64,000 nt of DNA from Candidatus Moanibacter sp. Its GTDB lineage: Bacteria; Verrucomicrobiota; Verrucomicrobiia; Opitutales; UBA2987. The DNA is taken from contig CBDDCD010000003.1 in assembly GCA_965226025.1 (NCBI GenBank), positions 985,227-1,049,226 of the forward strand. The letters run 5' to 3'. Under the pieces are notes generated by a model. That model was not told the origin of the DNA and ran no database searches. It saw only the letters and a list, made by a program, of their open reading frames with translations. The position numbers and the translations under genes were made by a program. Below, piece by piece: positions 18,391-64,000 of the stretch. Positions within the stretch are counted from its first letter, which is position 1, and each line of letters starts with the position of its first letter.

Positions 18391-20055
<1,665 letters not shown>

Positions 20056-20145: not shown

Positions 20146-20958
20146 CTAAATATTCGGATATAGTTTCTTGAGTTTGATCCTTGCATCATCGGTCGTAAAG
20201 CGCGAATCAATCTTGGACTGGCGTCCGTTGCGATCCCTTTCCCATGCTGAGATTTCTCTGCACATGCTAGCCACGTCCGGAATTCTTCGGTCCAGGCACT
20301 GGCTATTCAGGGCACTGAGTTCGATCTCTGCGATATTGAGCCAACTACCGTGTTTGGGGGTATAATGGATCTCCAATCGCTCGGCCAATGCTCTGGCTTC
20401 GGGGGCCGCAAAGGTCTCGTAGAGAGAGGTAATTGAATGGGTATTGAGATTGTCCATCACAAGAATCACCTTTGCGGCCTCGGGATAGTGCACAATCAAC
20501 AGTTCCCTGATCTGCAGGGCCCAGTCTTTGCGGGTTCTTCTTGCGGTGACGCTGACGTGGCGCCAGCCTCCCAACGGTTCAACGAACAAGAAGATTTCAG
20601 CGACCCCCTTTCGGGCGTATTCATGGTCGTAGCGCATTGGCTTTCCGGGGGCCGTTGGAATAGGCACCTTGACCTCATCGACGAGCTGCTTGCACGATTC
20701 ATCCATGCATATTTGAGGATACATCGGATCGTAGGGAAGATGATATACCGCCAAGATGTCTTCCATGCACGCGACAAAAGCCGCACTCTGTTTTGGCGGA
20801 ATTTTCCAGCACTTCCTCAGGTGAGGCTTAAGTTCGTTGTTTTTAATGCCTTCTGCACTGATGACTTTGAGATCTGCTCGAAGATATCCAAACGCACCAG
20901 TTCTTCGGCCAGAAGCCGCACTGTCCATCGTTTGCGCCCCGGCGGTGGCGAGGAACAA
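20146..20958 (-). CDS. IS630 transposase OrfB (DDE catalytic part, expressed by -1 frameshift from OrfA)
   Basis: Contains ICMDESCKQ (D), VILVMDNLNTHS (D), HGSWLNIAEIE (E). A -1 slip on TTAAAAAC (complement of 20839..20846) joins ...VQKALK to NNELKPHLRKCWKIPP, the usual IS630 junction. Confidence 0.8.
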   Translation of the reverse strand: MFLATAGAQTMDSAASGRRTGAFGYLRADLKVISAEGIKNNELKPHLRKCWKIPPKQSAAFVACMEDILAVYHLPYDPMYPQICMDESCKQLVDEVKVPIPTAPGKPMRYDHEYARKGVAEIFLFVEPLGGWRHVSVTARRTRKDWALQIRELLIVHYPEAAKVILVMDNLNTHSITSLYETFAAPEARALAERLEIHYTPKHGSWLNIAEIELSALNSQCLDRRIPDVASMCREISAWERDRNGRQSKIDSRFTTDDARIKLKKLYPNI

Positions 20959-33146: not shown

Positions 33147-33354
33147 CAACGAACTGAATTTCGGTTCAGGATCAGGTATTGAACAGATGCTTGGAGGATA
33201 AGTAGGTTCCTGCATTCCCATATGGCAATCCCAATTGAATTGCGGATTGCGTGGAGTTTGGTTCTTTTTTCGGAGAGTCGGCAGTTACGGAGTACAAGGA
33301 TGGCGCATCCTTGGCGATGGAGGGCAACAATCACGAGAAGGCAATAGGACAACG

Positions 33355-34128
33355 ATGACCCAAATCGCCAATATTGATAAGGACACCTTTTGGGGCCATC
33401 ACTCCTGGGTCGAATTTGCCGAACTTTCAAACAAGGAGAAACATTTGGCCATCGTGCCGATCTGCGGTTTTGCAGATTGGGGACTGGGGCATCCCCTCGA
33501 TATCGAGGAGACGGTCAGCATGGCCGTCTTGAGATTCGCGGTGGAACAGTCGAAAGACACGGTTCCGATAAGGGTGCTGCCTCTCCTGCGGTTTGTCCTC
33601 GGACCGTATCCGAACTGCTTTTTCTCGATCGATCCGGAGACCGCCTATCGCTTTTTCGAGGAAATCGTCCACTCGATACACCTTTCAGGTTTTAAAAGGG
33701 CCCTCCTATTCAACAGCAGTCCTTGGAATGAGGAGATCACTGAGAAGGCATGTGCCCGGGATCTGCGGATAAAATTCGGAATGCAGATATTTTGCATAAA
33801 CCTCAGCGCTCTCGGTCTCGATTTTCACCCTGAACGCAGCACTTCGCGCCGGGAGCTCCAGACTTTGGGGTCATTTCTGCTCGGCCGAGGACCGGACCTC
33901 GCGGGTAATCATTCAAAGCAAATTCCGGCGGATGGCCTGGCGCCGGGCGAAGTCGGAGCCGCACCCGCTCTCACCGAATGCGATTCACTCGCGGTGGCTC
34001 GGAATCTGGGCCCCCGGATTCTGAAAGAGTCCGGTCGGCATCTGGCGCGGCTCTTTCTCGAGATTTTTAGGCGGAAACCGCTGCCCCATGACGGTAGGAT
34101 CTTGCCCATGGAAAGCGGGCTGGTATGA
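33355..34128 (+). CDS. Creatininase-family paralogue lacking the metal-ligand motifs (probably non-catalytic)
   Basis: Start ATG 33355 (MTQIANID). Collinear with the next gene, but EQHGPHLP is replaced by ADWGLGHPLD and NTHGGN by FNSSPWN. Its stop overlaps the next ATG (ATGA). Confidence 0.5.
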   Translation: MTQIANIDKDTFWGHHSWVEFAELSNKEKHLAIVPICGFADWGLGHPLDIEETVSMAVLRFAVEQSKDTVPIRVLPLLRFVLGPYPNCFFSIDPETAYRFFEEIVHSIHLSGFKRALLFNSSPWNEEITEKACARDLRIKFGMQIFCINLSALGLDFHPERSTSRRELQTLGSFLLGRGPDLAGNHSKQIPADGLAPGEVGAAPALTECDSLAVARNLGPRILKESGRHLARLFLEIFRRKPLPHDGRILPMESGLV

Positions 34129-34898
34129 CAGATTACCGAAAGTTCTACCTACCGGCAAAGTCCCGAAACGAGATCGAGCGGATTCCCAACAAGGGGAGGG
34201 CGGTCGTGATTCTGCCGACCGGCGCCATTGAGCAACATGGGCCCCACCTTCCGGTGGGAGTCGATTCAATCTTGGGCCAGAGCTGGCTCAATTTTGCCCT
34301 TCCCCTGGTTTCCAGGGAAGTTCCTGTTTTCGTCGCCCCACCTCTCACAATTGGAAAGAGCGACGAACACAAGGGATTCCCAGGAACGCTTTCCATTTCT
34401 ACAATGACCTTTGGCAGGCTCTTACGGGCTATCGCGCAACAGGTGAATTCGTGGGATTTCCGCAATCTGGCCGTTCTTAACACCCATGGAGGAAATAGTT
34501 CTGTCATCCGCTACACCTTGAGAGAGATCCAGACCGAATTCGGTATGCGGACGTTTCTTCTCCGGTCGAGTTGGAGACCTCCATTGTCCATACAGGAGGA
34601 TACCTACGGTTTTCATGCCAATGAATTTGAGACCAGTTGTATGCTCGAGGTCACGGACGGTATGGTCGATATGTCAAAGGCGGTCTGCGAATACCCGTCT
34701 CATATCAGCGACCCCGGCGAGCTGCGTCCGGAAGATGCTCCTGCCACTTTCGCCTGGGCTACTCACGACCTCTCCCGAACTGGTGTAATCGGGGATGCCT
34801 CCGCCGCAACTCCGGAAAAAGGTAGGGAGTGGGTTGCGAAATACGCCGAAAGCCTCGCCCGCGAAATCGAAAAACTCTACTCTTCGCTGTCCAGCTAA
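34125..34898 (+). CDS. Creatininase / creatinine amidohydrolase family protein
   Basis: 257-aa ORF. ILPTGAIEQHGPHLPVGVDS, VLNTHGGNS, GFHANEFETS are the family metal- and substrate-binding motifs. Confidence 0.8.
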   Translation: MTDYRKFYLPAKSRNEIERIPNKGRAVVILPTGAIEQHGPHLPVGVDSILGQSWLNFALPLVSREVPVFVAPPLTIGKSDEHKGFPGTLSISTMTFGRLLRAIAQQVNSWDFRNLAVLNTHGGNSSVIRYTLREIQTEFGMRTFLLRSSWRPPLSIQEDTYGFHANEFETSCMLEVTDGMVDMSKAVCEYPSHISDPGELRPEDAPATFAWATHDLSRTGVIGDASAATPEKGREWVAKYAESLAREIEKLYSSLSS

Positions 34899-41401: not shown

Positions 41402-42409
41402 ATGAGAAGGGCGAGATTAAAGATACGGGGTCGGAGGGCGGTGTATCATTGTATATCGAGGACAGTAAATCGGGAGAAGCTGATGGATGGGGTAGCGAAG
41501 GAGGTGCTTAGGAAGCAGCTTTGGCAGATTGCCGATTTCTCGGGAGTGGAAGTGATCACCTACTGTCTGATGAGCAACCATTTCCATCTGCTGATAAGAG
41601 TTCCGGACAAGGAGAAAATTGAGGTGAAGGACGAGGAGTTGATGCGTCGGTACCGGGTTCTCTATCCAAGGAGGACTGAGCACGCACCAGCCGATCCTAG
41701 GGTATTGGAGGAAAAGCTGAAGGAGGGAGGAGAGGAAGGGGAGGCTATCAGAAAGCAGTTGTTGGCAAGAATGCATGATATTTCTGAGTTCATGAAGAGT
41801 CTGAAGCAGAGGTATACGATCTGGTATAACCGAACGCGAGGCCGGGTGGGGACGTTGTGGTCGGAGCGGTACAAGAGTGTGCTGGTTGAGGGGCGCGAGG
41901 CGGCGCTCCGAGTAACAGCGGCCTACATTGAACTGAACCCGGTTCGGGCTGGGTTGGTGGAGGATCCGAAAGAATATCGATGGAGCGGCTACGGGGAGGC
42001 GGTAGGGGGCAGTGAGCAGTCGCGAAGGGGGATCATCGATGCGGTGCAGGGGATTCAGATGGGGAGCTTGAGCTGGATCAGAGCGGCACGGGAGTATCGA
42101 ATACTGTTGTATTGTAAGGGCTCGGGCGTAAGGCCGGCATCGGAACGTGAGGGTAGCTTTCCGAGGGAGGAGTGGGTAGGAGTGATGGAAGCCGGGGGCA
42201 GGATTCCGGTGGCGGAAGCGCTGAGGTGTCGGGTGCGGTATTTCACGGATGGGGCAGTACTTGGATCCCAGACTTATGTTGAAGAGTTTTTCGAGGAGCA
42301 TCGAGATCAATTTGGAAAGAAGCGGAGGAGTGGCTCACGGAAAATGAAGGGGTGCGATTGGGAGGGATTGAGAGTGCTGAGAGATCTGAGGAGGGAAATT
42401 TTCACGTAG
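41402..42409 (+). CDS. REP-associated tyrosine transposase (RAYT, IS200-like HUH/Y1 family) with C-terminal extension
   Basis: 335-aa ORF. YHCISRTVN, HUH motif LMSNHFHLLI, catalytic-Tyr region AAYIELNPVRAGLVEDPKEYRWSGY. Confidence 0.8.
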   Translation: MRRARLKIRGRRAVYHCISRTVNREKLMDGVAKEVLRKQLWQIADFSGVEVITYCLMSNHFHLLIRVPDKEKIEVKDEELMRRYRVLYPRRTEHAPADPRVLEEKLKEGGEEGEAIRKQLLARMHDISEFMKSLKQRYTIWYNRTRGRVGTLWSERYKSVLVEGREAALRVTAAYIELNPVRAGLVEDPKEYRWSGYGEAVGGSEQSRRGIIDAVQGIQMGSLSWIRAAREYRILLYCKGSGVRPASEREGSFPREEWVGVMEAGGRIPVAEALRCRVRYFTDGAVLGSQTYVEEFFEEHRDQFGKKRRSGSRKMKGCDWEGLRVLRDLRREIFT

Positions 42410-56849: not shown

Positions 56850-58334
56850 TCAGCGATCCGGAAGCGAGAATTCCCTATCGCCGTTGTTGTAGTAGACATG
56901 ATTGGAACCATCCGCACAGTTCAGCACGAGATCGGGAATACCATCCTCATCGATGTCGTCGATCCCAGCCGCCTGTATTCCGGAGGACGATCCCGCCAGC
57001 CGGTGGACGTCGTCTGCTGGAAATCGTGAACCGGCGTTAAAAAATACGGCTGCATCACTTCCGGTGGCGCCGATTAGAAGGTCCGTCAAGCCATCGAAAT
57101 CGAAGTCATAGGGATAGATGAAATCGGGTTTTCGACTCTCTTGAACCAGGCCCGTTTCGATCGGCGTCTCCGTTTCCAGAAATACGAGGTGTTGACCGGT
57201 TGTCCTTCCCCGGGCGTTAAGGAGGATTTTCAAAGAACCGTTGGGGTTGCCGTTGTAGAGAACGAGGTCGGGTTGGTTATCGGAATTGACATGGACAACG
57301 GCGACGAACCCGGACTCCCGCACTTGCTGACCGGGAAAAACATCGCGTGACAGAGGTTCTGGTGAAGAATTTAGTTGCATCGCGCTCAACGCCATTCCGT
57401 CGGAATCGGCCAGATTATTCTCGAAGGCCCACCACTGTGCCATCCCGTCAGGACGTCCAACCGCGACGATGAGATCGAGATCGCCATCCAAGTCGAGGTC
57501 CGAAGAAGTGATGTGATGCCAAGGCTGTCGCGTTGGATCCGGCCACGCCCTCTTTGGAAGTGCCTGAAAGATCGACGAAGAGACTTCCACACCCCCATCC
57601 TCAACATTTTCAGGGCCAACGGAGACGACCGCTGAGCCACGAAGTATCTCCTCCTTTTCTGGGATCTTAGCGATAGGACCGAGACTATTTCTCTGCGCCT
57701 GTTTCTTCGGGTAGAAAGAGGGAACCTGAGCGATGGAGGAAATAGAAAATTGCGGCGGGAGACTCTTCCGAGACGTTTCGGGCTTTGTGACGGTCGGAAC
57801 GATGATTCCGAATTCGATTCCCTCTTGGGCATGTTCGCCGCAGCCGAAATAGATCAGCCGATCAAAGTTCTCTTTGATCAAAATGGTAACGATGCGGGTG
57901 TTTCCGTAAAATGTCTTCGTAGTAAGGGCCTCCCGGTCAAAGAGACGATTTGAGAGGCGTTCGAGTTTGTGCTCGTTGGGCGGCAGTTCGAAATTGCGAT
58001 CTACTTCAACCCGTCGGCCGAGTTCCGATTCATCGGGTCGGGTGACATAGAAAAACACACTGTGGGTTCCCCCGGTCTGTCGGAACTCGATCGAATCGCC
58101 TTCAACGGCCGGGATACGTACCACTCCCCGGGACTCGCCTCGGCCCGAGTGTTTACCTCGATAGTGCCAGGTTTCATTCGATGCGGTAACTATGTGGCGA
58201 TGGGAAGTACCGGGTTGCGAAGTTTGGTTTGCGTTTAGGGAGAGAGGGATGAATTGAAGCAAAATCGTCAGGCATGAAATCAAACATCCAAGTTGGGATC
58301 GGCCTGCTCCCGAATTCTGAAACCAACTATGCAT
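56850..58334 (-). CDS. Secreted cupredoxin-like domain fused to FG-GAP/VCBS beta-propeller repeats
   Basis: 494-aa ORF. Signal peptide. N-domain (about 57795..58202) with candidate type-1 Cu ligands GGTH91SVFF and YFGC165GEH168AQEGI. C-half has four DxDxDGxxDL-type repeats (SSDLDLDGDLDLIVA, NSDNQPDLVLYN, DFDFDGLTDLLIG, DIDEDGIPDLVLN). Confidence 0.65.
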   Translation of the reverse strand: MHSWFQNSGAGRSQLGCLISCLTILLQFIPLSLNANQTSQPGTSHRHIVTASNETWHYRGKHSGRGESRGVVRIPAVEGDSIEFRQTGGTHSVFFYVTRPDESELGRRVEVDRNFELPPNEHKLERLSNRLFDREALTTKTFYGNTRIVTILIKENFDRLIYFGCGEHAQEGIEFGIIVPTVTKPETSRKSLPPQFSISSIAQVPSFYPKKQAQRNSLGPIAKIPEKEEILRGSAVVSVGPENVEDGGVEVSSSIFQALPKRAWPDPTRQPWHHITSSDLDLDGDLDLIVAVGRPDGMAQWWAFENNLADSDGMALSAMQLNSSPEPLSRDVFPGQQVRESGFVAVVHVNSDNQPDLVLYNGNPNGSLKILLNARGRTTGQHLVFLETETPIETGLVQESRKPDFIYPYDFDFDGLTDLLIGATGSDAAVFFNAGSRFPADDVHRLAGSSSGIQAAGIDDIDEDGIPDLVLNCADGSNHVYYNNGDREFSLPDR

Positions 58335-59614
58335 TATCTCGACGAAAGTGGAAGAATGCTGTCGTTTCCTTTAGGAAGAATAGAAAAGAGTCCCCACTCG
58401 CCGCCTTCGAGATGTTCTCCGACATGACAACCATAGAGGTATTGCTGTTCCGAATTCACATTCGGCTGGGGGCGCAATCGGAGGTTGAAAGTGGCGGTTG
58501 AGGCGAGAGCGATGGCCGAAATTCGGTTGGAGGACTCGCTTTGAAAATCGAAGGGCCATCTCTGGCCATCGATGAAAAAGGAATGCTCCGCGGCGGTGCC
58601 TTCTCCCACCGCATGGATGAGACGAATGAGGATGCGATCTTCCTCGAGGACCATTATTTTCGGAGTTGGCGGTTGATCTTTTTCGCCGGCGGCCGAGAAG
58701 AGGTTGATTGCATTCAGTCTCTGGTTTGACCACCCGGAGTGAGTAAAAATTGCGAACTCCCGGAAGGACTCTTTTGGATCGTCCTCTAAGAGGATGCGGG
58801 CCGACCATCCCGGCTGTGCGTCACTCTGGAGAGAGGAGGACTCGCTCGATTCAAATCGGGCCCCCGGAGGTTCTACGATTAGGGCGCCGAAGAGTCCAAA
58901 TCGTTGGTGAGTGGGGTCGGCCATATCCCTCAGGTAACAGGCGCCTAACTCCCGATTCACCGACCAGTGGTAGTCTCTCGAGTCACCTCTGAGAATGATC
59001 GATGGATCATTGAGTCCGATCGCCGCTCCATCTGAGGAGGTCACGTCATAACTGACGAGGCCGGCATGAATCGCCGTAGTCGATGTCCAGGACGTCCCAA
59101 AACGATCGGGATTGGGGTCGTTCAAAGGTATCTCAGGGAGGAGATTAGATAACCGAAGGCAGACCAGAACAGGTTTATTCGTACCATCGGTGGCTTTCTT
59201 ACCGGCAGCGACACGCAGGACGAGGGGATGCGGATCGGCTGCGAAGCGCGGCCGCAATTCGCCGAGTAGATCCCCAATCCTCAATTCGATTTCCTGACCC
59301 AAAAGGAACGCTTTCTCTGTTTCATTTCGACCGAGCGCCCTTCCTTTTTCCCTGGTCAGCTTCGTAATTTCGTTTGCCGCGGCCTGGTCCTGCCGGTTCT
59401 TGAGCTCAAGATAGACTAGGGCCGGAACATCGCCTACTGCGGAGGAGCGGGAGGGAACGGTGACCTCGAGGGCGGCGATGTGGAAGCAGACCACCTTCCC
59501 TTTTGGGCCGCTGCCGGCTGGGGGCGGGATGCAGACGCTTTTGCAGCCGCTGACGAGACCGAGCAGGGAGAGAAGGAGAGTGGCTCTCAGTGTCAGCTTT
59601 TCAATGGTCGTCAT
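58334..59614 (-). CDS. Lipoprotein, multicopper-oxidase-like paralogue of the C-terminal module of the upstream giant protein
   Basis: 426-aa ORF. Lipobox LVSGC24. AIHAGLVSYDVTSSDGAAIGLN and HQRFGLFGALIVEP align with GMHTHLVQYDVQSSDGAVAGLN and PHGLFAATIVEP of the giant protein. C-terminal YGCHVGEHLEGGEWGLFSI (58391..58432) is HCHxxxH-like. The stop shares one nt with the next ATG (TAATG). Confidence 0.65.
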   Translation of the reverse strand: MTTIEKLTLRATLLLSLLGLVSGCKSVCIPPPAGSGPKGKVVCFHIAALEVTVPSRSSAVGDVPALVYLELKNRQDQAAANEITKLTREKGRALGRNETEKAFLLGQEIELRIGDLLGELRPRFAADPHPLVLRVAAGKKATDGTNKPVLVCLRLSNLLPEIPLNDPNPDRFGTSWTSTTAIHAGLVSYDVTSSDGAAIGLNDPSIILRGDSRDYHWSVNRELGACYLRDMADPTHQRFGLFGALIVEPPGARFESSESSSLQSDAQPGWSARILLEDDPKESFREFAIFTHSGWSNQRLNAINLFSAAGEKDQPPTPKIMVLEEDRILIRLIHAVGEGTAAEHSFFIDGQRWPFDFQSESSNRISAIALASTATFNLRLRPQPNVNSEQQYLYGCHVGEHLEGGEWGLFSILPKGNDSILPLSSR

Positions 59615-62600
59615 TTTCCAGAAGTTGCTGTTTGAGTGATGTCCGTTGACTGCAAATCCTGCAGCGGTGTAAGACCTCCGACGAATCTCTCCTTACTTGC
59701 CATTTCAAGTATAGTCGGCTCATCACCGTCTTCGGTTTCAAATTCAATTCCATCAAGTTCGGTAGCAAAAAGCATGTTCGCGGGGATATTCCCCTGATCG
59801 CCTCGAATCTCCGCAACGAGAGGGATTTCAAAGAACAATGCAGGCGGATCAAATCGCCTCGCAACGTTGTTCTCTATTGTCTCCGAATCCACTGAAGTCG
59901 TCTCGCGGGTGAGAAATCGGACGCCGGAAGCGGAAGTGAAAAGATGACCCTTGGAGACGTTAACGTTGGAGGGCGCGTCGATGAATATTCGAATCGTGCC
60001 GTTTGCCCGGGAGTCGGCGTCGGTAGTGTCGGTTTCCGGTTGAATGCGCAACAGACCCCACTTCCCCCGTTCGATCAGATCGTCTTCGCTTGGATCGGAG
60101 TAGAGGTAGTCTCCCTCTGGCGCCCGGACCATGGGATCGGTCGTGAAGCTGAATGCTTCCGATACTCCCGCGAGCACGAAATCACGAAATGTAGAGTTTG
60201 GGTTGTTGTGTTCATAGCGCCAGCGATGTCCGTGCAGATTCAGGGTGTGAATCTCGTCGGGTCCACTACCCTCGACTCGAATTCTTATGGGATCACCCTC
60301 AAACGCTCGCCAGATCGGGGTTACAGGATCCCCGTGGAGTATCGAACTGAAGCGCATTTCGTTACCTCCAAGGATCTGTGGTCGCCCCGCTCTATCCCAC
60401 CTCACATCGAAAGGTGTAGTGCGAGCTTTGAGCGGTTTCTCCCGCCGGACGAGGGGCTCACTTCGCAGGTTGATCGATTTACGGTTTCTCCTGCCATCGT
60501 TGAAGAGCGGCACGACTTCGCGAAAAGAGGATTTACCGCCGCCATTCACCCCGATCCTAATGTCAGCCAAAGCCAGACCATTTCGACTTGAGGTCCTGCT
60601 GATAATATCCTCGGAGTTTCGAATGTAGAGCTGGCTGCCGGTTTGAGGATCGTGGTAGGTGGAGTCACGCGGTTCGACAATGGTAGCCGCAAAAAGCCCG
60701 TGGGGAAGGCTGTCTTTGAGTAGCGAATGATCATGCCAGTAGACAGTTCCCAATTCAACGTCGCACCACCAGCGATAGTGGACCTGCTCGTCATGGGTCT
60801 GCGCTTCGTCGATCGGAATAAAACGCTCTTCATTCCGGTCCCATCGCAAGGAAGGTCGAATCGATGTCTCGTAGTTCAACCCAGCGACCGCACCATCGGA
60901 TGATTGCACGTCGTACTGAACCAGGTGGGTGTGCATACCAACCTTGCTCAGAAATTCATTCTCGGTTGTATCAACCAGGGCGCTTGTCAAAGTGATATCT
61001 ACGACATCGCCCGTATTGGCGCGGATGACCAGCGGCTCCGCCCTCTTGCGACCGGCGAAAATGTCCTTTGCGTCATCGCGGAGCACGAAGATCTGGCCTC
61101 GCGGGTCGATGAAATCCGGCTCCGGGGCCCGGGGGGGCGGGCTGAGCGCCAGGCGGCCTCTCATCTGCACTCCGTCTCCGCCATGAACTTTGCAGAGGAA
61201 ATCGATCGATTCGGATTCAGAGATACCCACTTTGACGATGGCGCTGGCGAGAAGGGTCCCGGGCCCAAAACCGGTGGTGCCGAATGCACCGGTCCCGAAA
61301 CCACCAAAATTGGGGTCGTCTTCGAGGGGTTGACCGACTGCGGGGTCGAAATCGAGGATGCTTTCTGTAGTCGCTCGGTCGGAAAAGACCAATCCGTGAA
61401 AGCCTCCTTCCACTTTCCATGAGATCGAGTCACCGGGACGGATCACACTGTCGGTGGGATTGACGGCGGGTTCTTGAGGAACGCCGTCGACTCGGAGATG
61501 CCAGTTTTCTGTGTCGCTGGCGATGGCGAAGAATTCAAAGGAAGTTTCCGCATCCGGTTCGGTGGTGTCCAGAACCACCAGGCGGGCATTCATTCCGGCG
61601 GGGCCGTGGACGCGGCAAGTAAAGTCGACGATTCTTTGAGGGGTACCTAGAGGATCTGACTTGACCGAGGCACGGGCGAGGATGGTGGGCGCTGGAAAAC
61701 CGCCGGTGCCGAATGCTTCCGCTCCAAAGTTGCCGAAATTGGGAAGATCGTCGAGAGACTCGCCGACCGTCTGGTCGAATAAAAGGATGGATTCGGCTGT
61801 GGTCCGATTCGCAAAGACCAAGCCGTGAATATTCGCCTCGACCTTCCAGATAATTGTGTCTCCTGGAAGGACTGCAATTTCGTCCGTATTCTGCCCAATG
61901 CCATCAATTCGTATCTGCCACGCGTCCGTGTTCGGCCCTCCGATGATTTCAACGAGCCGGGGACCAGGCACCGGTCCCGGTGGGTCGGGCGAATCCGGCT
62001 GGTCTGGGAGTGTTCCAAAAGATCCTGAAATACGGGCGCCATTGTGAGTCGAGTAGTTGATCGGGAGTTCGACCGCGACGATGTCGTAGTGTCTCACCTT
62101 CGACGGTTCTGAATCGGCCTCTTCAGGAGCCAGACCGCTCCCGAAGGGAACGCCGAGTGGTTCCAGTTGAGGGCCGACGCGACCCGGATCGTTCCTCCCA
62201 AAGGTGGGACCCAGGTATGCTGTTCCTTGGACCTTCGCATCTTCCTGGAGAAGCCATTGCTCGTCGGTGCTGTTTGGAGGAGAGAGTCGGTGTTTGGGAG
62301 CAAATGGAGGGCGTCGTCCGGCATGGGGGAGGAGGAAGGGGTAGGCGAGGCGGCCGTCGATCGGATTGAAAAGAAGGCGAGGGGCTTCAAGTTCCTCTCT
62401 CTCCCCATCGACTTCAACGAAATCCATCCTGTTTGCCCCGACACCTTCACCGACGGTTGGGAACCCCAGACCGAAATCAACCAGACTGTGAGGAAGGGAA
62501 TCGGCGCCCGCGGCAGAAGGCTCGCCTAGGTAGAGCCGCCCTTCGGACAGATCGAGGGCATCCCACGGCCACAGGTCGGCACGATTGATCAGGGAATTGG

Positions 62601-64000
62601 CGGAAACCGGAGAACGGGAATCGAGTTCTTCGAGATCGGGATCCCCTCGGCGGGGCAGCTGAGAATCGATGAATGGATACAGTTCGTTTTCGATCTCCTC
62701 AAGACGCCTACCCGCGAAAGCTCCGGTAACCGGAATCGGTCCCTGGCCGCTTTCGACGAGCTGGGCAAGAGTGATAGAATCGACTGCCTGTGGGGGACGA
62801 AATCCAGCGCTGAGCCGATCGGGGAGGGGTGCGAGGCCGGGACGAAAAGAGGTTCGCGTCTGAAGGGTATTGAAAATCCGGGCATAGGTCCACATCCCGC
62901 GTACGACATGGTCGATGATGTGGCAGTGAAAGAGTACGTCGCCGACCGTGCGCTGTACTCCGCCCGCTCCGCCTTCCATGAAGACGTCGAAAGTCTCGGC
63001 CGGGCCGAGCGTTTGGGAGTCGACACGAGTCGAGATTGATTCGGTCAGATCGGGTTGGGCGGCAAATTCCGGGAGGCCGAGTTTCGACGGACGCGTCAGG
63101 TTCGCTTTTTCTTTTGGGGCGCCAGTCTCCGTGACTCCATTCTGGAAACGCCAGCGGTGGGCGTGATGGTGAAAAACATGAAACTGGTCACCGGTGCCTC
63201 CGTGGACGATGCGATACCGCATGGGATCTCCCACGTAGAATCTCGGATGAGGAGTGGATGAATCACCGTAGGTGTAGGCGCTGTAAGCCATCGAGTGGTC
63301 GTTGACGGCGAAGGGGCGCTTACCCTCGAGGCGGGGTCGTGTGTCGGCAATTTCCCGCTCGAGAATGTCCGCGAAGGGTTCGGTCCGGTAGTTGAGGGCC
63401 CTGGGATCAACTTCGATGAGTCCTTCGACTTTTCCCCCAAGGTCGTCGTGGAAGAAGATCACATATTCGCGGTAGGCAGGAATGTCGGGATCCTTGTTGT
63501 CGATGATCGCGCCCCATCCGCTTCGGATCGTTTTGTAACTCTCTTCGGCAATACGGTAATCGCCGAAGCCGTCGTCGTCTGAAATCTCGAAGGCTTCCGT
63601 ATCATAGTAGATCGAACCCTTCGGCTCGACGATGAGGGCGCCGAATAGCCCGTGTGCAATTTGGGTTCGAGTTCGCCTCAATCCATGGGCGGTGTCGCTC
63701 GGTAGAACCGGCTGACTGTGAAAGTAGTAGGTTCCTTCGCTTTCCGGATTCGCTCCGATGGTCAGGATGTAACGCAGATGGTAGTTAGAAGCATTCGGAT
63801 GAGGGAAGGGGGCGGATTCCTCGGTCCCATTGAGTGCGTGAAAATCATAGGGGACGCCGTGGAGAGTTAGATTCGCGCGATGGTCGGTTCCGTCTTCGCC
63901 CCCAGGAACCGTGAGTCGATTGGTGAAGTCGATGACGACTGTGTCCCCTACGTTGGCTCGGATCACCAGAGGTTCAGAGGTCAGAACCGGCACCCGTTTT
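59611..64000 (-). CDS. Giant multi-cupredoxin multicopper-oxidase-like protein (>1460 aa; N-terminus lies beyond the right edge)
   Basis: Frame is open to position 64000. Canonical MCO motifs HVFHHHAHRW (63151..63180) and HCHIIDHVVRGM (62893..62928). Two tandem plastocyanin-like domains with CRVHGPAGM (61591..61617) and CKVHGGDGVQM (61162..61194). A second MCO-like module with GMHTHLVQYD (HTH at 60925..60933), YWHDHS and HTLNLHGHRW. The stop overlaps the next ATG (ATGA at 59611..59614). Confidence 0.8.
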   Translation of the reverse strand, partial: KRVPVLTSEPLVIRANVGDTVVIDFTNRLTVPGGEDGTDHRANLTLHGVPYDFHALNGTEESAPFPHPNASNYHLRYILTIGANPESEGTYYFHSQPVLPSDTAHGLRRTRTQIAHGLFGALIVEPKGSIYYDTEAFEISDDDGFGDYRIAEESYKTIRSGWGAIIDNKDPDIPAYREYVIFFHDDLGGKVEGLIEVDPRALNYRTEPFADILEREIADTRPRLEGKRPFAVNDHSMAYSAYTYGDSSTPHPRFYVGDPMRYRIVHGGTGDQFHVFHHHAHRWRFQNGVTETGAPKEKANLTRPSKLGLPEFAAQPDLTESISTRVDSQTLGPAETFDVFMEGGAGGVQRTVGDVLFHCHIIDHVVRGMWTYARIFNTLQTRTSFRPGLAPLPDRLSAGFRPPQAVDSITLAQLVESGQGPIPVTGAFAGRRLEEIENELYPFIDSQLPRRGDPDLEELDSRSPVSANSLINRADLWPWDALDLSEGRLYLGEPSAAGADSLPHSLVDFGLGFPTVGEGVGANRMDFVEVDGEREELEAPRLLFNPIDGRLAYPFLLPHAGRRPPFAPKHRLSPPNSTDEQWLLQEDAKVQGTAYLGPTFGRNDPGRVGPQLEPLGVPFGSGLAPEEADSEPSKVRHYDIVAVELPINYSTHNGARISGSFGTLPDQPDSPDPPGPVPGPRLVEIIGGPNTDAWQIRIDGIGQNTDEIAVLPGDTIIWKVEANIHGLVFANRTTAESILLFDQTVGESLDDLPNFGNFGAEAFGTGGFPAPTILARASVKSDPLGTPQRIVDFTCRVHGPAGMNARLVVLDTTEPDAETSFEFFAIASDTENWHLRVDGVPQEPAVNPTDSVIRPGDSISWKVEGGFHGLVFSDRATTESILDFDPAVGQPLEDDPNFGGFGTGAFGTTGFGPGTLLASAIVKVGISESESIDFLCKVHGGDGVQMRGRLALSPPPRAPEPDFIDPRGQIFVLRDDAKDIFAGRKRAEPLVIRANTGDVVDITLTSALVDTTENEFLSKVGMHTHLVQYDVQSSDGAVAGLNYETSIRPSLRWDRNEERFIPIDEAQTHDEQVHYRWWCDVELGTVYWHDHSLLKDSLPHGLFAATIVEPRDSTYHDPQTGSQLYIRNSEDIISRTSSRNGLALADIRIGVNGGGKSSFREVVPLFNDGRRNRKSINLRSEPLVRREKPLKARTTPFDVRWDRAGRPQILGGNEMRFSSILHGDPVTPIWRAFEGDPIRIRVEGSGPDEIHTLNLHGHRWRYEHNNPNSTFRDFVLAGVSEAFSFTTDPMVRAPEGDYLYSDPSEDDLIERGKWGLLRIQPETDTTDADSRANGTIRIFIDAPSNVNVSKGHLFTSASGVRFLTRETTSVDSETIENNVARRFDPPALFFEIPLVAEIRGDQGNIPANMLFATELDGIEFETEDGDEPTILEMASKERFVGGLTPLQDLQSTDITQTATSGK

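Follow-up and report, generated by a model that had tools for sequence, protein, structure and literature searches.

A predicted MnxG-type six-domain multicopper oxidase split between two genes in Candidatus Moanibacter sp.

Introduction

To our knowledge, no biological Mn(II) oxidases are better understood than the MnxG-type enzymes. Among these, purification and a structure have been achieved for the Bacillus complex only, which depends on two small subunits that remain enigmatic. In this complex, Mnx of Bacillus sp. PL-12 (MnxG with MnxE3F3; Protein Data Bank (PDB) entry 9bxa), MnxG carries six cupredoxin domains (D1-D6) on one polypeptide, and the enzyme sits on the spore surface. Mnx is an experimentally established oxidase of Mn(II) and Mn(III), and it requires additional subunits (PMC5622069). 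Bacterial six-domain multicopper proteins have one type-1 copper site in D2 and a trinuclear cluster between D2 and D3, while the cluster of ceruloplasmin lies between D1 and D6 (PMC3600357). The enzyme family and its copper layout are therefore already known, and a member from Planctomyces (now Gimesia) maris, ZP_01851853.1, was catalogued in 2013 as a six-domain multicopper protein (PMC3600357). Here we describe a three-gene operon at the end of a 64,000-nucleotide stretch of Candidatus Moanibacter sp. (contig CBDDCD010000003.1, positions 985,227 to 1,049,226), which we call the window. We are highly confident that the locus encodes a MnxG-type oxidase divided between two genes, and it represents an uncharacterised variant of the MnxG family rather than a new kind of system.

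An initial annotation, made from the letters of the window, had proposed three overlapping minus-strand genes for atypical copper proteins, and the coordinates and both junctions matched exactly. The genes and their junctions are as follows.

59611..>64000, minus strand: gene 1, an open reading frame (ORF) with 1462 codons inside the window and the frame open at the window edge
58334..59614, minus strand: gene 2, an ORF of 426 aa
56850..58334, minus strand: gene 3, an ORF of 494 aa
59611..59614, minus strand: stop/start overlap ATGA between genes 1 and 2, read in the sequence
58332..58336, minus strand: stop/start overlap TAATG between genes 2 and 3, read in the sequence

The minus-strand junction sequences, GGAAAATGACGACC and GAGATAATGCATAG, give a 4-nt ATGA overlap and a 1-nt TAATG overlap, respectively. 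The same three genes are spaced by gaps of 118 nt and 209 nt in a relative with 51-60 % identity.

Results

Gene 1 encodes D1-D4 of a MnxG-type oxidase with a single catalytic copper centre

Comparison of gene 1 with all PDB sequences returned a single match, the MnxG chain 9bxa_A from the Mnx complex of Bacillus sp. PL-12 (E=9.4e-90). The alignment is colinear: residues 88-620 of the full-length gene 1 protein pair with MnxG 3-421 (D1-D2 and the start of the D2-D3 linker) and residues 1142-1500 pair with MnxG 461-783 (D3-D4). The motif HTHLVQYDVQSSDG, which the initial annotation had quoted in pointing to a resemblance to MnxG and similar giant oxidases, pairs with MnxG GFHIHFVKFDVLACDG, and this colinear match establishes the resemblance as true homology. 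Pfam identified Cu-oxidase_3 and Cu-oxidase_2 in gene 1. Among 8000 scored candidates, 1295 were homologues of gene 1; the listed ones mostly measure 1200-2500 aa, and the JGI name "manganese oxidase" is attached to several. The parts of gene 1 that correspond to MnxG, together with its C-terminal extension, are listed below.

63550..63999, minus strand: C-terminal part of D1 (its start lies beyond the window edge), with the copper-ligand remnants LTLHG and YYFHSQ only
62848..63525, minus strand: D2, the catalytic cupredoxin domain, with the type-1 His, Cys, His and Met and four trinuclear-cluster His
63151-63180, minus strand: ligand motif HVFHHHAHRW of D2
62893-62928, minus strand: ligand motif HCHIIDHVVRGM of D2
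61954..62847, minus strand: family-specific D2-D3 linker LAPLPDR...RPPFAP, shared with MnxG
60613..61119, minus strand: D3, with HTH (60925-60933) and HDH (60727-60735) as the other four trinuclear-cluster His
60028..60555, minus strand: D4, which has no Cys, an acidic loop SDPSEDD at the would-be type-1 position, and ligand remnants only
59614..60027, minus strand: C-terminal extension, kept in fused relatives before the D5 linker

The C-terminal extension gave a weak Baseplate_J-like match (E=0.03), and the same family is precomputed as "weak" in one relative (P0010).

We mapped the copper ligands onto the 120 best homologues of gene 1. All 12 D2/D3 ligand positions, covering the type-1 site and the trinuclear cluster, are present in gene 1 and are kept in about 119 of the 120 homologues, or in every sequence that aligns. 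In P0001, the 1643-aa protein called for gene 1 on the recovered source contig (L001), they are H455, H458, H460, H539, C540, H541, H545, M550, H1204, H1206, H1270 and H1272. The motifs HxxHxH, HCHxxxHxxxxM, HxH and HxH, the single type-1 copper in D2 and the cluster between D2 and D3 are shared with Bacillus Mnx, and the layout is the one given for all bacterial six-domain multicopper oxidases in PMC3600357. Since this sole catalytic centre straddles D2 and D3, gene 1 does not consist of two independent oxidase modules, as had been proposed, but of D1-D4 of one six-domain oxidase. The earlier claim of at least one trinuclear-cluster ligand set can now be made exact, as one complete set was found (D2/D3). 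The view that the domain order matches no characterised system was not borne out, because the order is that of MnxG once inserted domains are set aside.

Gene 1 is not an orthologue of a characterised enzyme. Pseudomonas putida MnxG and Leptothrix MofA belong to the same superfamily of bacterial multicopper oxidases of more than 1400 aa, in which many members are annotated as manganese oxidase. The corresponding Pseudomonas-type MnxG equivalog model (NCBIfam NF041487) scored 125.8 bits for gene 1 and 31.5 bits for gene 2, far under its cut-off of 3100, which places gene 1 in a distant subfamily rather than among the equivalogs. We know of no cupredoxin inserts or FG-GAP partner in the Pseudomonas putida MnxG or Leptothrix MofA-type enzymes.

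Gene 2 is the D5-D6 module of the same oxidase, detached as a predicted lipoprotein

The search of the PDB with gene 2 also found MnxG (E=8.2e-33), with the best stretches in D5 (927-1037) and D6 (1103-1207); Pfam gave a sub-threshold Cu-oxidase_3. Eight fused relatives (P0003-P0010, including the Gimesia maris protein), which are 2047-2546 aa long and 41-54 % identical to gene 1, continue beyond the point where gene 1 stops, and gene 2 is colinear with their extreme C-terminus up to the last residues (31-40 % identity). For gene 2, AlphaFold2 with an alignment of 54 family sequences gave a confident model (pLDDT 83, pTM 0.86) that consists of two cupredoxin domains and a helical hairpin (residues 74-126), and Foldseek placed 9bxa_A first (E=2.8e-24, TM 0.64), followed by factor V and two-domain laccases (~1e-14). 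Because of the colinearity with the fused C-terminus, the MnxG D5-D6 match and the fold of the model, we conclude that gene 2 is the D5-D6 module of the same oxidase, split off by gene fission. Its parts are the following.

59543-59614, minus strand: signal peptide and lipobox, from the sequence pattern
59237-59395, minus strand: helical hairpin, from the model
58829-59236, minus strand: D5, from homology and the model
58337-58807, minus strand: D6, from homology and the model
58583-58585 (His344) and 58412-58429 (CHVGEH, with Cys396 and His401), minus strand: possible type-1-like site, in which Glu replaces the axial Met

Where the fused proteins have a linker, we see the stop/start overlap and, at the beginning of gene 2, a signal peptide with a lipobox (MTTIEKLTLRATLLLSLLGLVSGC). 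The lipobox, VSGC at residues 21-24, is predicted from its pattern and follows a basic n-region (MTTIEKLTLR) and a hydrophobic core. The initial description of gene 2 as a lipoprotein paralogue of a second oxidase module was thus right about the lipobox; the protein is an orthologue of the D5-D6 module and not a mere paralogue. Since gene 2 belongs to the same enzyme, the suggested dependence on accessory subunits, by analogy with MnxE/F, largely comes down to gene fission, as the same part is fused in the more distant members of the clade.

We considered whether the gene 1/gene 2 split could be an artefact, a frameshift error in a truly fused gene, as the oxidase is fused in all the more distant clade members (L005, L007, L008, L009, L010 and L011). 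The split recurs, however, in several near-identical assemblies and in a relative with 57-60 % identity that comes from independent metagenomes (L003/L006/L002), where the gene 2 counterpart is preceded by a 118-nt spacer and has its own hydrophobic N-terminus. Moreover, gene 2 has a start codon, the basic n-region, the hydrophobic core and the lipobox in place of the linker. An artefactual split is almost excluded.

The D5-D6 module is degenerate with respect to copper. At the trinuclear-cluster positions gene 2 has HxG, RxM, FxD and GCH instead of HxH, HxH, HxH and HCH, so that the ligands are lost. The Cys of the type-1-like site is Ser, Ala or Asp in most relatives; to judge from the residues, a copper site in gene 2 is possible, yet it is no conserved feature. 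Gene 2 shares its two-cupredoxin-domain fold with the two-domain laccases (SLAC, Ssl1) and differs from them in lacking the trinuclear-cluster ligands that each laccase unit carries. Two-domain laccases assemble as homotrimers, the subunit interfaces of which hold three trinuclear clusters, and three two-domain units make the same pseudo-threefold ring as the six-domain proteins ceruloplasmin and hephaestin; here the ring would be a 4+2 heterodimer.

Two amicyanin-like type-1 domains are inserted between D2 and D3

MnxG has no counterpart of two domains of ~125 aa each that sit between D2 and D3 of gene 1; relative to the Bacillus protein, ~300 further residues are inserted as well.

61573..61953, minus strand: insert domain 1 (Pc1), amicyanin/plastocyanin-like type-1 copper domain, His...CRVHGPAGM
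61141..61521, minus strand: insert domain 2 (Pc2), amicyanin/plastocyanin-like type-1 copper domain, His...CKVHGGDGVQM

We aligned 14 copies of the domain from gene 1, its relatives and stand-alone proteins of related clusters, with pairwise identities of 21-50 % to the first copy. Invariant in all 14 were one Trp, two Gly and one Leu together with His45, Cys115, His118 and Met123, with a ligand spacing of C-x2-H-x(3-6)-M. The profile of the inserts matched almost solely amicyanin and plastocyanin in the PDB, with individual E-values that are marginal (0.01-0.5), and in these matches the ligand His and the CxxH..M segment align. Pfam gave no match on the isolated insert domains, and PF00127 is precomputed for one relative (P0003). 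On the strength of the invariant ligands, we take the inserts to be type-1 cupredoxin domains, as the initial annotation had proposed for two plastocyanin-like domains. Insert number (one to three) and position differ among the relatives.

The initial count of up to five type-1 sites was upheld in part. Three sites are fully conserved (D2, Pc1 and Pc2). Those of gene 2 and gene 3 have no axial Met, and across the wider clade they are not maintained.

A rare cupredoxin/FG-GAP protein accompanies the oxidase throughout the clade

Gene 3 had been described as a fusion of a cupredoxin-like domain with an FG-GAP propeller, and its regions are as follows.

58227-58334, minus strand: signal-like hydrophobic N-terminus, from the sequence pattern
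57780-58205, minus strand: degenerate cupredoxin N-domain (140 aa), with His91/Cys165/His168
56853-57527, minus strand: FG-GAP repeats (~225 residues), approximately four, with three DxDxDG loops

A low-complexity linker separates the N-domain from the repeats. The repeats were clear in Pfam, with FG-GAP_3 at E=6.7e-13 and 49.5 bits (cut-off 26.9) and FG-GAP at 33.7 bits (cut-off 22.1). The isolated N-domain had no Pfam match, and its kinship with cupredoxins came from a profile comparison with the insert family (hhalign probability 95 %, E=2.7e-8), in which His91, Cys165 and His168 fall on the first three type-1 ligands of the inserts (His, Cys and His) and Glu stands where Met is expected. 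The Cys of the N-domain occurs in five of nine orthologues, and the type-1 ligands are missing in the other four. These alignments suggest that the N-domain is a cupredoxin relative whose predicted copper site is not conserved. The proposed fusion stood with regard to the FG-GAP repeats, and has to be qualified with regard to an N-domain that is probably a degenerate cupredoxin.

The structural model of gene 3 was of low confidence (pLDDT 52, five homologues in the alignment), and the fold search with it gave weak propeller matches (TM about 0.27) to CRTAC1 and to PVL, a fungal FG-GAP-type lectin, which we take as a sign of consistency and no more. About four repeats fit in the 225 residues, compared with the seven blades of a complete propeller.

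An exhaustive HMMER search of 1.84 billion representatives found the gene 3 family to be rare, with about 20 clusters at 50 % identity matching the N-domain or the full length; the remaining matches were generic FG-GAP proteins, which also dominated a profile search with gene 3. A local hidden Markov model scan of 89 fetched loci and the window placed an orthologue directly downstream of the oxidase in L003, L005, L007, L008, L009, L010 and L011, that of L007 (Gimesia) having 27 % identity (E=3e-27). In the 78 loci from other lineages of the MnxG family, among them Acidobacteriota, Bacillota and Actinomycetota, the scan detected no orthologue. Gene 3 thus adjoins the oxidase wherever the clade occurs.

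MnxE/F-like proteins were not found: the operon has no small ORFs, and neither gene 3 nor a 163-aa ORF upstream of gene 1 matched a PDB chain, assuming that the 9bxa entry carries the MnxE/F chains. The earlier statement that the partner genes match no characterised system therefore holds.

The N-terminus of the oxidase lies beyond the window and is interrupted by an in-frame TGA

The initial annotation had pointed to a missing N-terminus beyond position 64000. On the source contig it was recovered and revealed a premature in-frame stop. P0001 begins at a Met and has no hydrophobic segment. A 163-aa ORF (g0) in the same frame ends at a single TGA, 34 nt upstream of the called gene 1 start, and in all fused relatives the corresponding region is the N-terminus of the oxidase.

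L001 3638-4126: 163-aa ORF, the N-terminal region with signal peptide and Met/Cys-rich region
L001 4127-4129, window minus strand: in-frame TGA at precursor codon 164, ~0.6 kb past window position 64000

Two near-identical genomes have TGG (Trp) at codon 164 and encode one 1818-aa protein with a signal peptide (P0122 and P0124). Selenocysteine or another recoding at the TGA is unlikely, since these sister alleles encode Trp and TGA is an ordinary stop in the window. As sequenced, with TGA at codon 164, D1-D4 would lack a signal peptide or other export signal. In further sister assemblies we found alleles with a frameshift within insert 1, truncated alleles or a shortened gene 3.

These lesions raise the question of whether the locus is non-functional in this strain, the nonsense codon having cut the signal peptide and N-terminal region from D1-D4 in a decaying operon, so that the enzyme may be inactive in the strain of this genome. 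The loss of Trp164, the called frame without a hydrophobic N-terminus, the normal stop function of TGA and the frameshifts or truncations that affect gene 1 and gene 3 in near-identical assemblies all point in this direction. On the other hand, the 1643-aa frame, gene 2 and gene 3 are otherwise intact, ~99.9 % identical to intact alleles and with every ligand kept, and errors made in sequencing or assembling long contigs may account for the lesions. We regard a broken locus as doubtful, though it deserves serious weight; it would concern activity in one strain and not the nature of the system.

The N-terminal region itself is absent from MnxG. Its 163-aa ORF contains a Met/Cys-rich stretch (WMLMMQGMAGI ... 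PMPCC ... EHQCC), and the region (W/F-MLMMQGMAG ... PMPCCG.PGSK..EH.CC) is kept across the clade (N-termini of P0003-P0017) and partly in acidobacterial homologues. It had no Pfam or PDB match. Judged by its composition, it is a possible Cu(I)-handling segment, and it recalls Cu(I)-binding segments such as the CueO/PcoC-type Met motifs. The locus could accordingly be read as an envelope Cu/Fe homeostasis enzyme or a laccase-type phenol oxidase, akin to CueO, CotA and the two-domain laccases; multicopper oxidases are promiscuous, and the gene 2 model also resembles two-domain laccases. However, MnxG is the closest relative that has been solved and characterised, being the sole PDB sequence match of gene 1 and outranking the laccases with the gene 2 model (E=2.8e-24 compared with ~1e-14), and no copper-resistance genes lie nearby. 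This assignment therefore appears quite improbable.

A perfect 25-nt inverted repeat lies upstream of the operon, between a VTT-domain gene and the point where the oxidase precursor begins (L001 3380-3404 and 3475-3499; arms TAGCCCGAAGATACCACGCACCTCC and GGAGGTGCGTGGTATCTTCGGGCTA, ~70 nt apart). It may serve as a terminator or a regulatory hairpin, or it may be a small mobile element.

Relatives place the oxidase in larger clusters that share the amicyanin-like domain

The closest relatives of gene 1 are fused giant multicopper oxidases in Planctomycetota-type genomes (for example, the 2057-aa P0005 of Gimesia maris), with 41-61 % identity. They share with the window locus the N-terminal region, the inserts, the C-terminal extension, the degenerate D5-D6 and the FG-GAP partner gene directly downstream. 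They differ in being single polypeptides with a variable number and position of inserts, and their D6 and partner domains are without the Cys present in gene 2 and gene 3.

A larger cluster follows the oxidase and FG-GAP partner in three of the relatives, Gimesia and two metagenomic ones (L007 15966-20774; L008 16420-21401; L009 17262-20795), and encodes stand-alone proteins of two or three amicyanin-like domains and glyoxal-oxidase-like proteins, with an AhpC/Redoxin protein in two of the three (L007 and L009). The glyoxal-oxidase-like protein begins with an amicyanin-like domain in L007, its near-duplicate L011 and L008. None of these additional genes stands beside the window operon.

The sharing of the amicyanin-like domain across the cluster proteins is the main argument for a role in electron transfer. 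It would fit a copper-only terminal oxidase, in which electrons from partner redox proteins enter through the two amicyanin-like domains and the enzyme forms the O2-reducing end of a periplasmic or extracellular chain. Besides the stand-alone and glyoxal-oxidase-borne copies, the fully conserved type-1 ligands of the inserts and the related domain of the gene 3 partner speak for such a chain. Several observations argue against it: the window locus is without the extra cluster genes of the relatives, the gene 3 domain has lost its type-1 ligands in four of nine orthologues, no cytochromes or quinol-linked proteins are found nearby, and characterised members of the MnxG family act directly on Mn(II). 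We therefore hold a terminal oxidase to be unlikely.

An animal-haem-peroxidase gene lies near the Gimesia cluster. Two loci of the clade carry unexpected titles. L011, titled uncultured Nitrosomonas sp., has the same gene order and ORF sizes as Gimesia maris L007, and L010, titled Nitrospinae bacterium, has a fused oxidase and partner of the same clade. These taxonomic labels may reflect mis-binning or horizontal transfer.

The operon lies among housekeeping genes

The neighbours of the operon in the window are housekeeping genes, including those for a xylose-isomerase-like protein, an aminotransferase, an AI-2E transporter, a FecR-like protein, DnaK, GroEL and TonB/ExbB. When all larger ORFs of the window were scanned, no copper chaperone, copper-resistance gene, cytochrome, peroxidase or glyoxal oxidase was found. 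The GC content of the operon (0.54-0.58) is inside or just above the range of the window, so horizontal transfer is not indicated. Promoter and terminator scans gave nothing informative, and the 64-kb window contains no rRNA or tRNA.

Two transposase-type ORFs are present in the window (41402-42409 and 20146-20958), one IS200-like (Y1_Tnp) and one a DDE_3 endonuclease, as is a tandem pair of creatininase-family ORFs (33235-34898), the first of which matches the family weakly. The GroEL (18412-20055) is the lone member of its 90 % identity cluster among ~15 billion proteins, and the source lineage thus appears poorly sampled.

Discussion

Compared with Bacillus Mnx, the operon described here combines the same six colinear domains and copper centre with a different organisation: D5-D6 stand on a separate predicted lipoprotein, a signal peptide and Met/Cys-rich region precede D1, a 494-aa cupredoxin/FG-GAP partner takes the place of MnxE and MnxF, and the hydrophobic N-termini of g0, gene 2 and gene 3, recognised as sequence patterns, predict export in a Gram-negative-type cell rather than a place on the spore surface. 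In the literature searched, we did not find a description of the amicyanin-like inserts, of the constant cupredoxin/FG-GAP partner replacing MnxE/F, of the fission that makes D5-D6 a lipoprotein, or of the shared-domain cluster in the relatives.

We lean towards the view that the locus specifies an exported, lipid-anchored MnxG-type six-domain oxidase, a 4+2 heterodimer with relay inserts and gene 3 as its partner. The homology, the domain map, the conserved ligands, the fission, the synteny and the export signals, the latter as sequence patterns, can be read from the sequences, whereas the formation of a complex, the path of the electrons, the part played by gene 3 and the substrate are inferred. 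Intact gene 1, made as an 1818-aa precursor with a Sec-type signal peptide and the Met/Cys-rich N-terminal region, would supply D1-D4. Electrons would enter at the type-1 copper of D2 and pass through the His-Cys-His triad to the D2/D3 trinuclear cluster, where O2 would be reduced to water. By analogy with the covalent D5-D6 of MnxG and of the fused relatives, we infer that gene 2 closes the pseudo-threefold ring, and as a lipoprotein it would tether the enzyme to the membrane. The inserts most likely serve as built-in sites of electron entry or relay that feed the D2 type-1 copper. Copper nitrite reductases with a fused extra cupredoxin offer a parallel in design, as the added type-1 domain is thought to be a built-in electron-transfer partner; they belong to a different family with different chemistry, passing electrons to nitrite and not O2. 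Gene 3, with its Ca-type FG-GAP repeats, would be a secreted partner that probably binds to the oxidase, where it may act as a scaffold, present the substrate or handle mineral.

Since the only characterised relatives act on reduced metal, a reduced-metal substrate seems most likely, with Mn(II) named first. By this homology, we would give oxidation of Mn(II) a chance somewhat short of even and oxidation of Fe(II) or Cu(I) a distinctly smaller one, while an organic or protein donor would take up the rest.

Several observations weigh against the heterodimer that we favour. In this genome the precursor is interrupted by the TGA, and with frameshifted or truncated alleles in several sister assemblies, the locus may be decaying or the assemblies may be error-prone. 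MnxE/F, required for active Bacillus Mnx, are absent, the identity to Bacillus MnxG is low, and the NF041487 score is 126 bits against a cut-off of 3100. Because D5-D6 are degenerate in the clade, they may have a structural role and nothing more. The nearest relative does not share the stop/start overlaps, and the structural model of gene 3 is poor (pLDDT 52).

A broader proposal, which we consider a long shot, is that we see in this clade an extracellular system for electron transfer that is modular and copper-only, in which a MnxG-type oxidase captured amicyanin-like docking and relay domains and is fed by partners with the same domain. If this were true, the partners would be the cupredoxin/FG-GAP protein in the window and, in the relatives, also the multi-cupredoxin and cupredoxin-fused glyoxal-oxidase-like proteins. 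Such a system would permit, for example, energy-linked or reactive oxygen species-coupled oxidation of Mn(II) or Fe(II) in Planctomycetota-like bacteria, and the natural 4+2 split would illustrate how a six-domain oxidase can be put together from smaller units.

The value of the finding lies at the level of the clade, as the gene in this genome may be broken, and it concerns researchers on multicopper oxidases and on microbial Mn cycling. The clade offers an alternative to the Bacillus design, with the last two domains separable as a lipoprotein, type-1 domains inserted beside the catalytic centre and an FG-GAP protein as constant companion. It gives handles on the assembly and anchoring of giant multicopper oxidases and lets one ask whether extra blue-copper sites feed the catalytic type-1 site. 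In a study of Mn-oxide biofilms, 15 of 29 metagenome-assembled genomes had "manganese oxidase" genes, and those of Planctomycetota often carried them (PMC10732223). Planctomycetota repeatedly dominate such biofilms, and the clade described here bears on the question of which enzyme could lie behind this.

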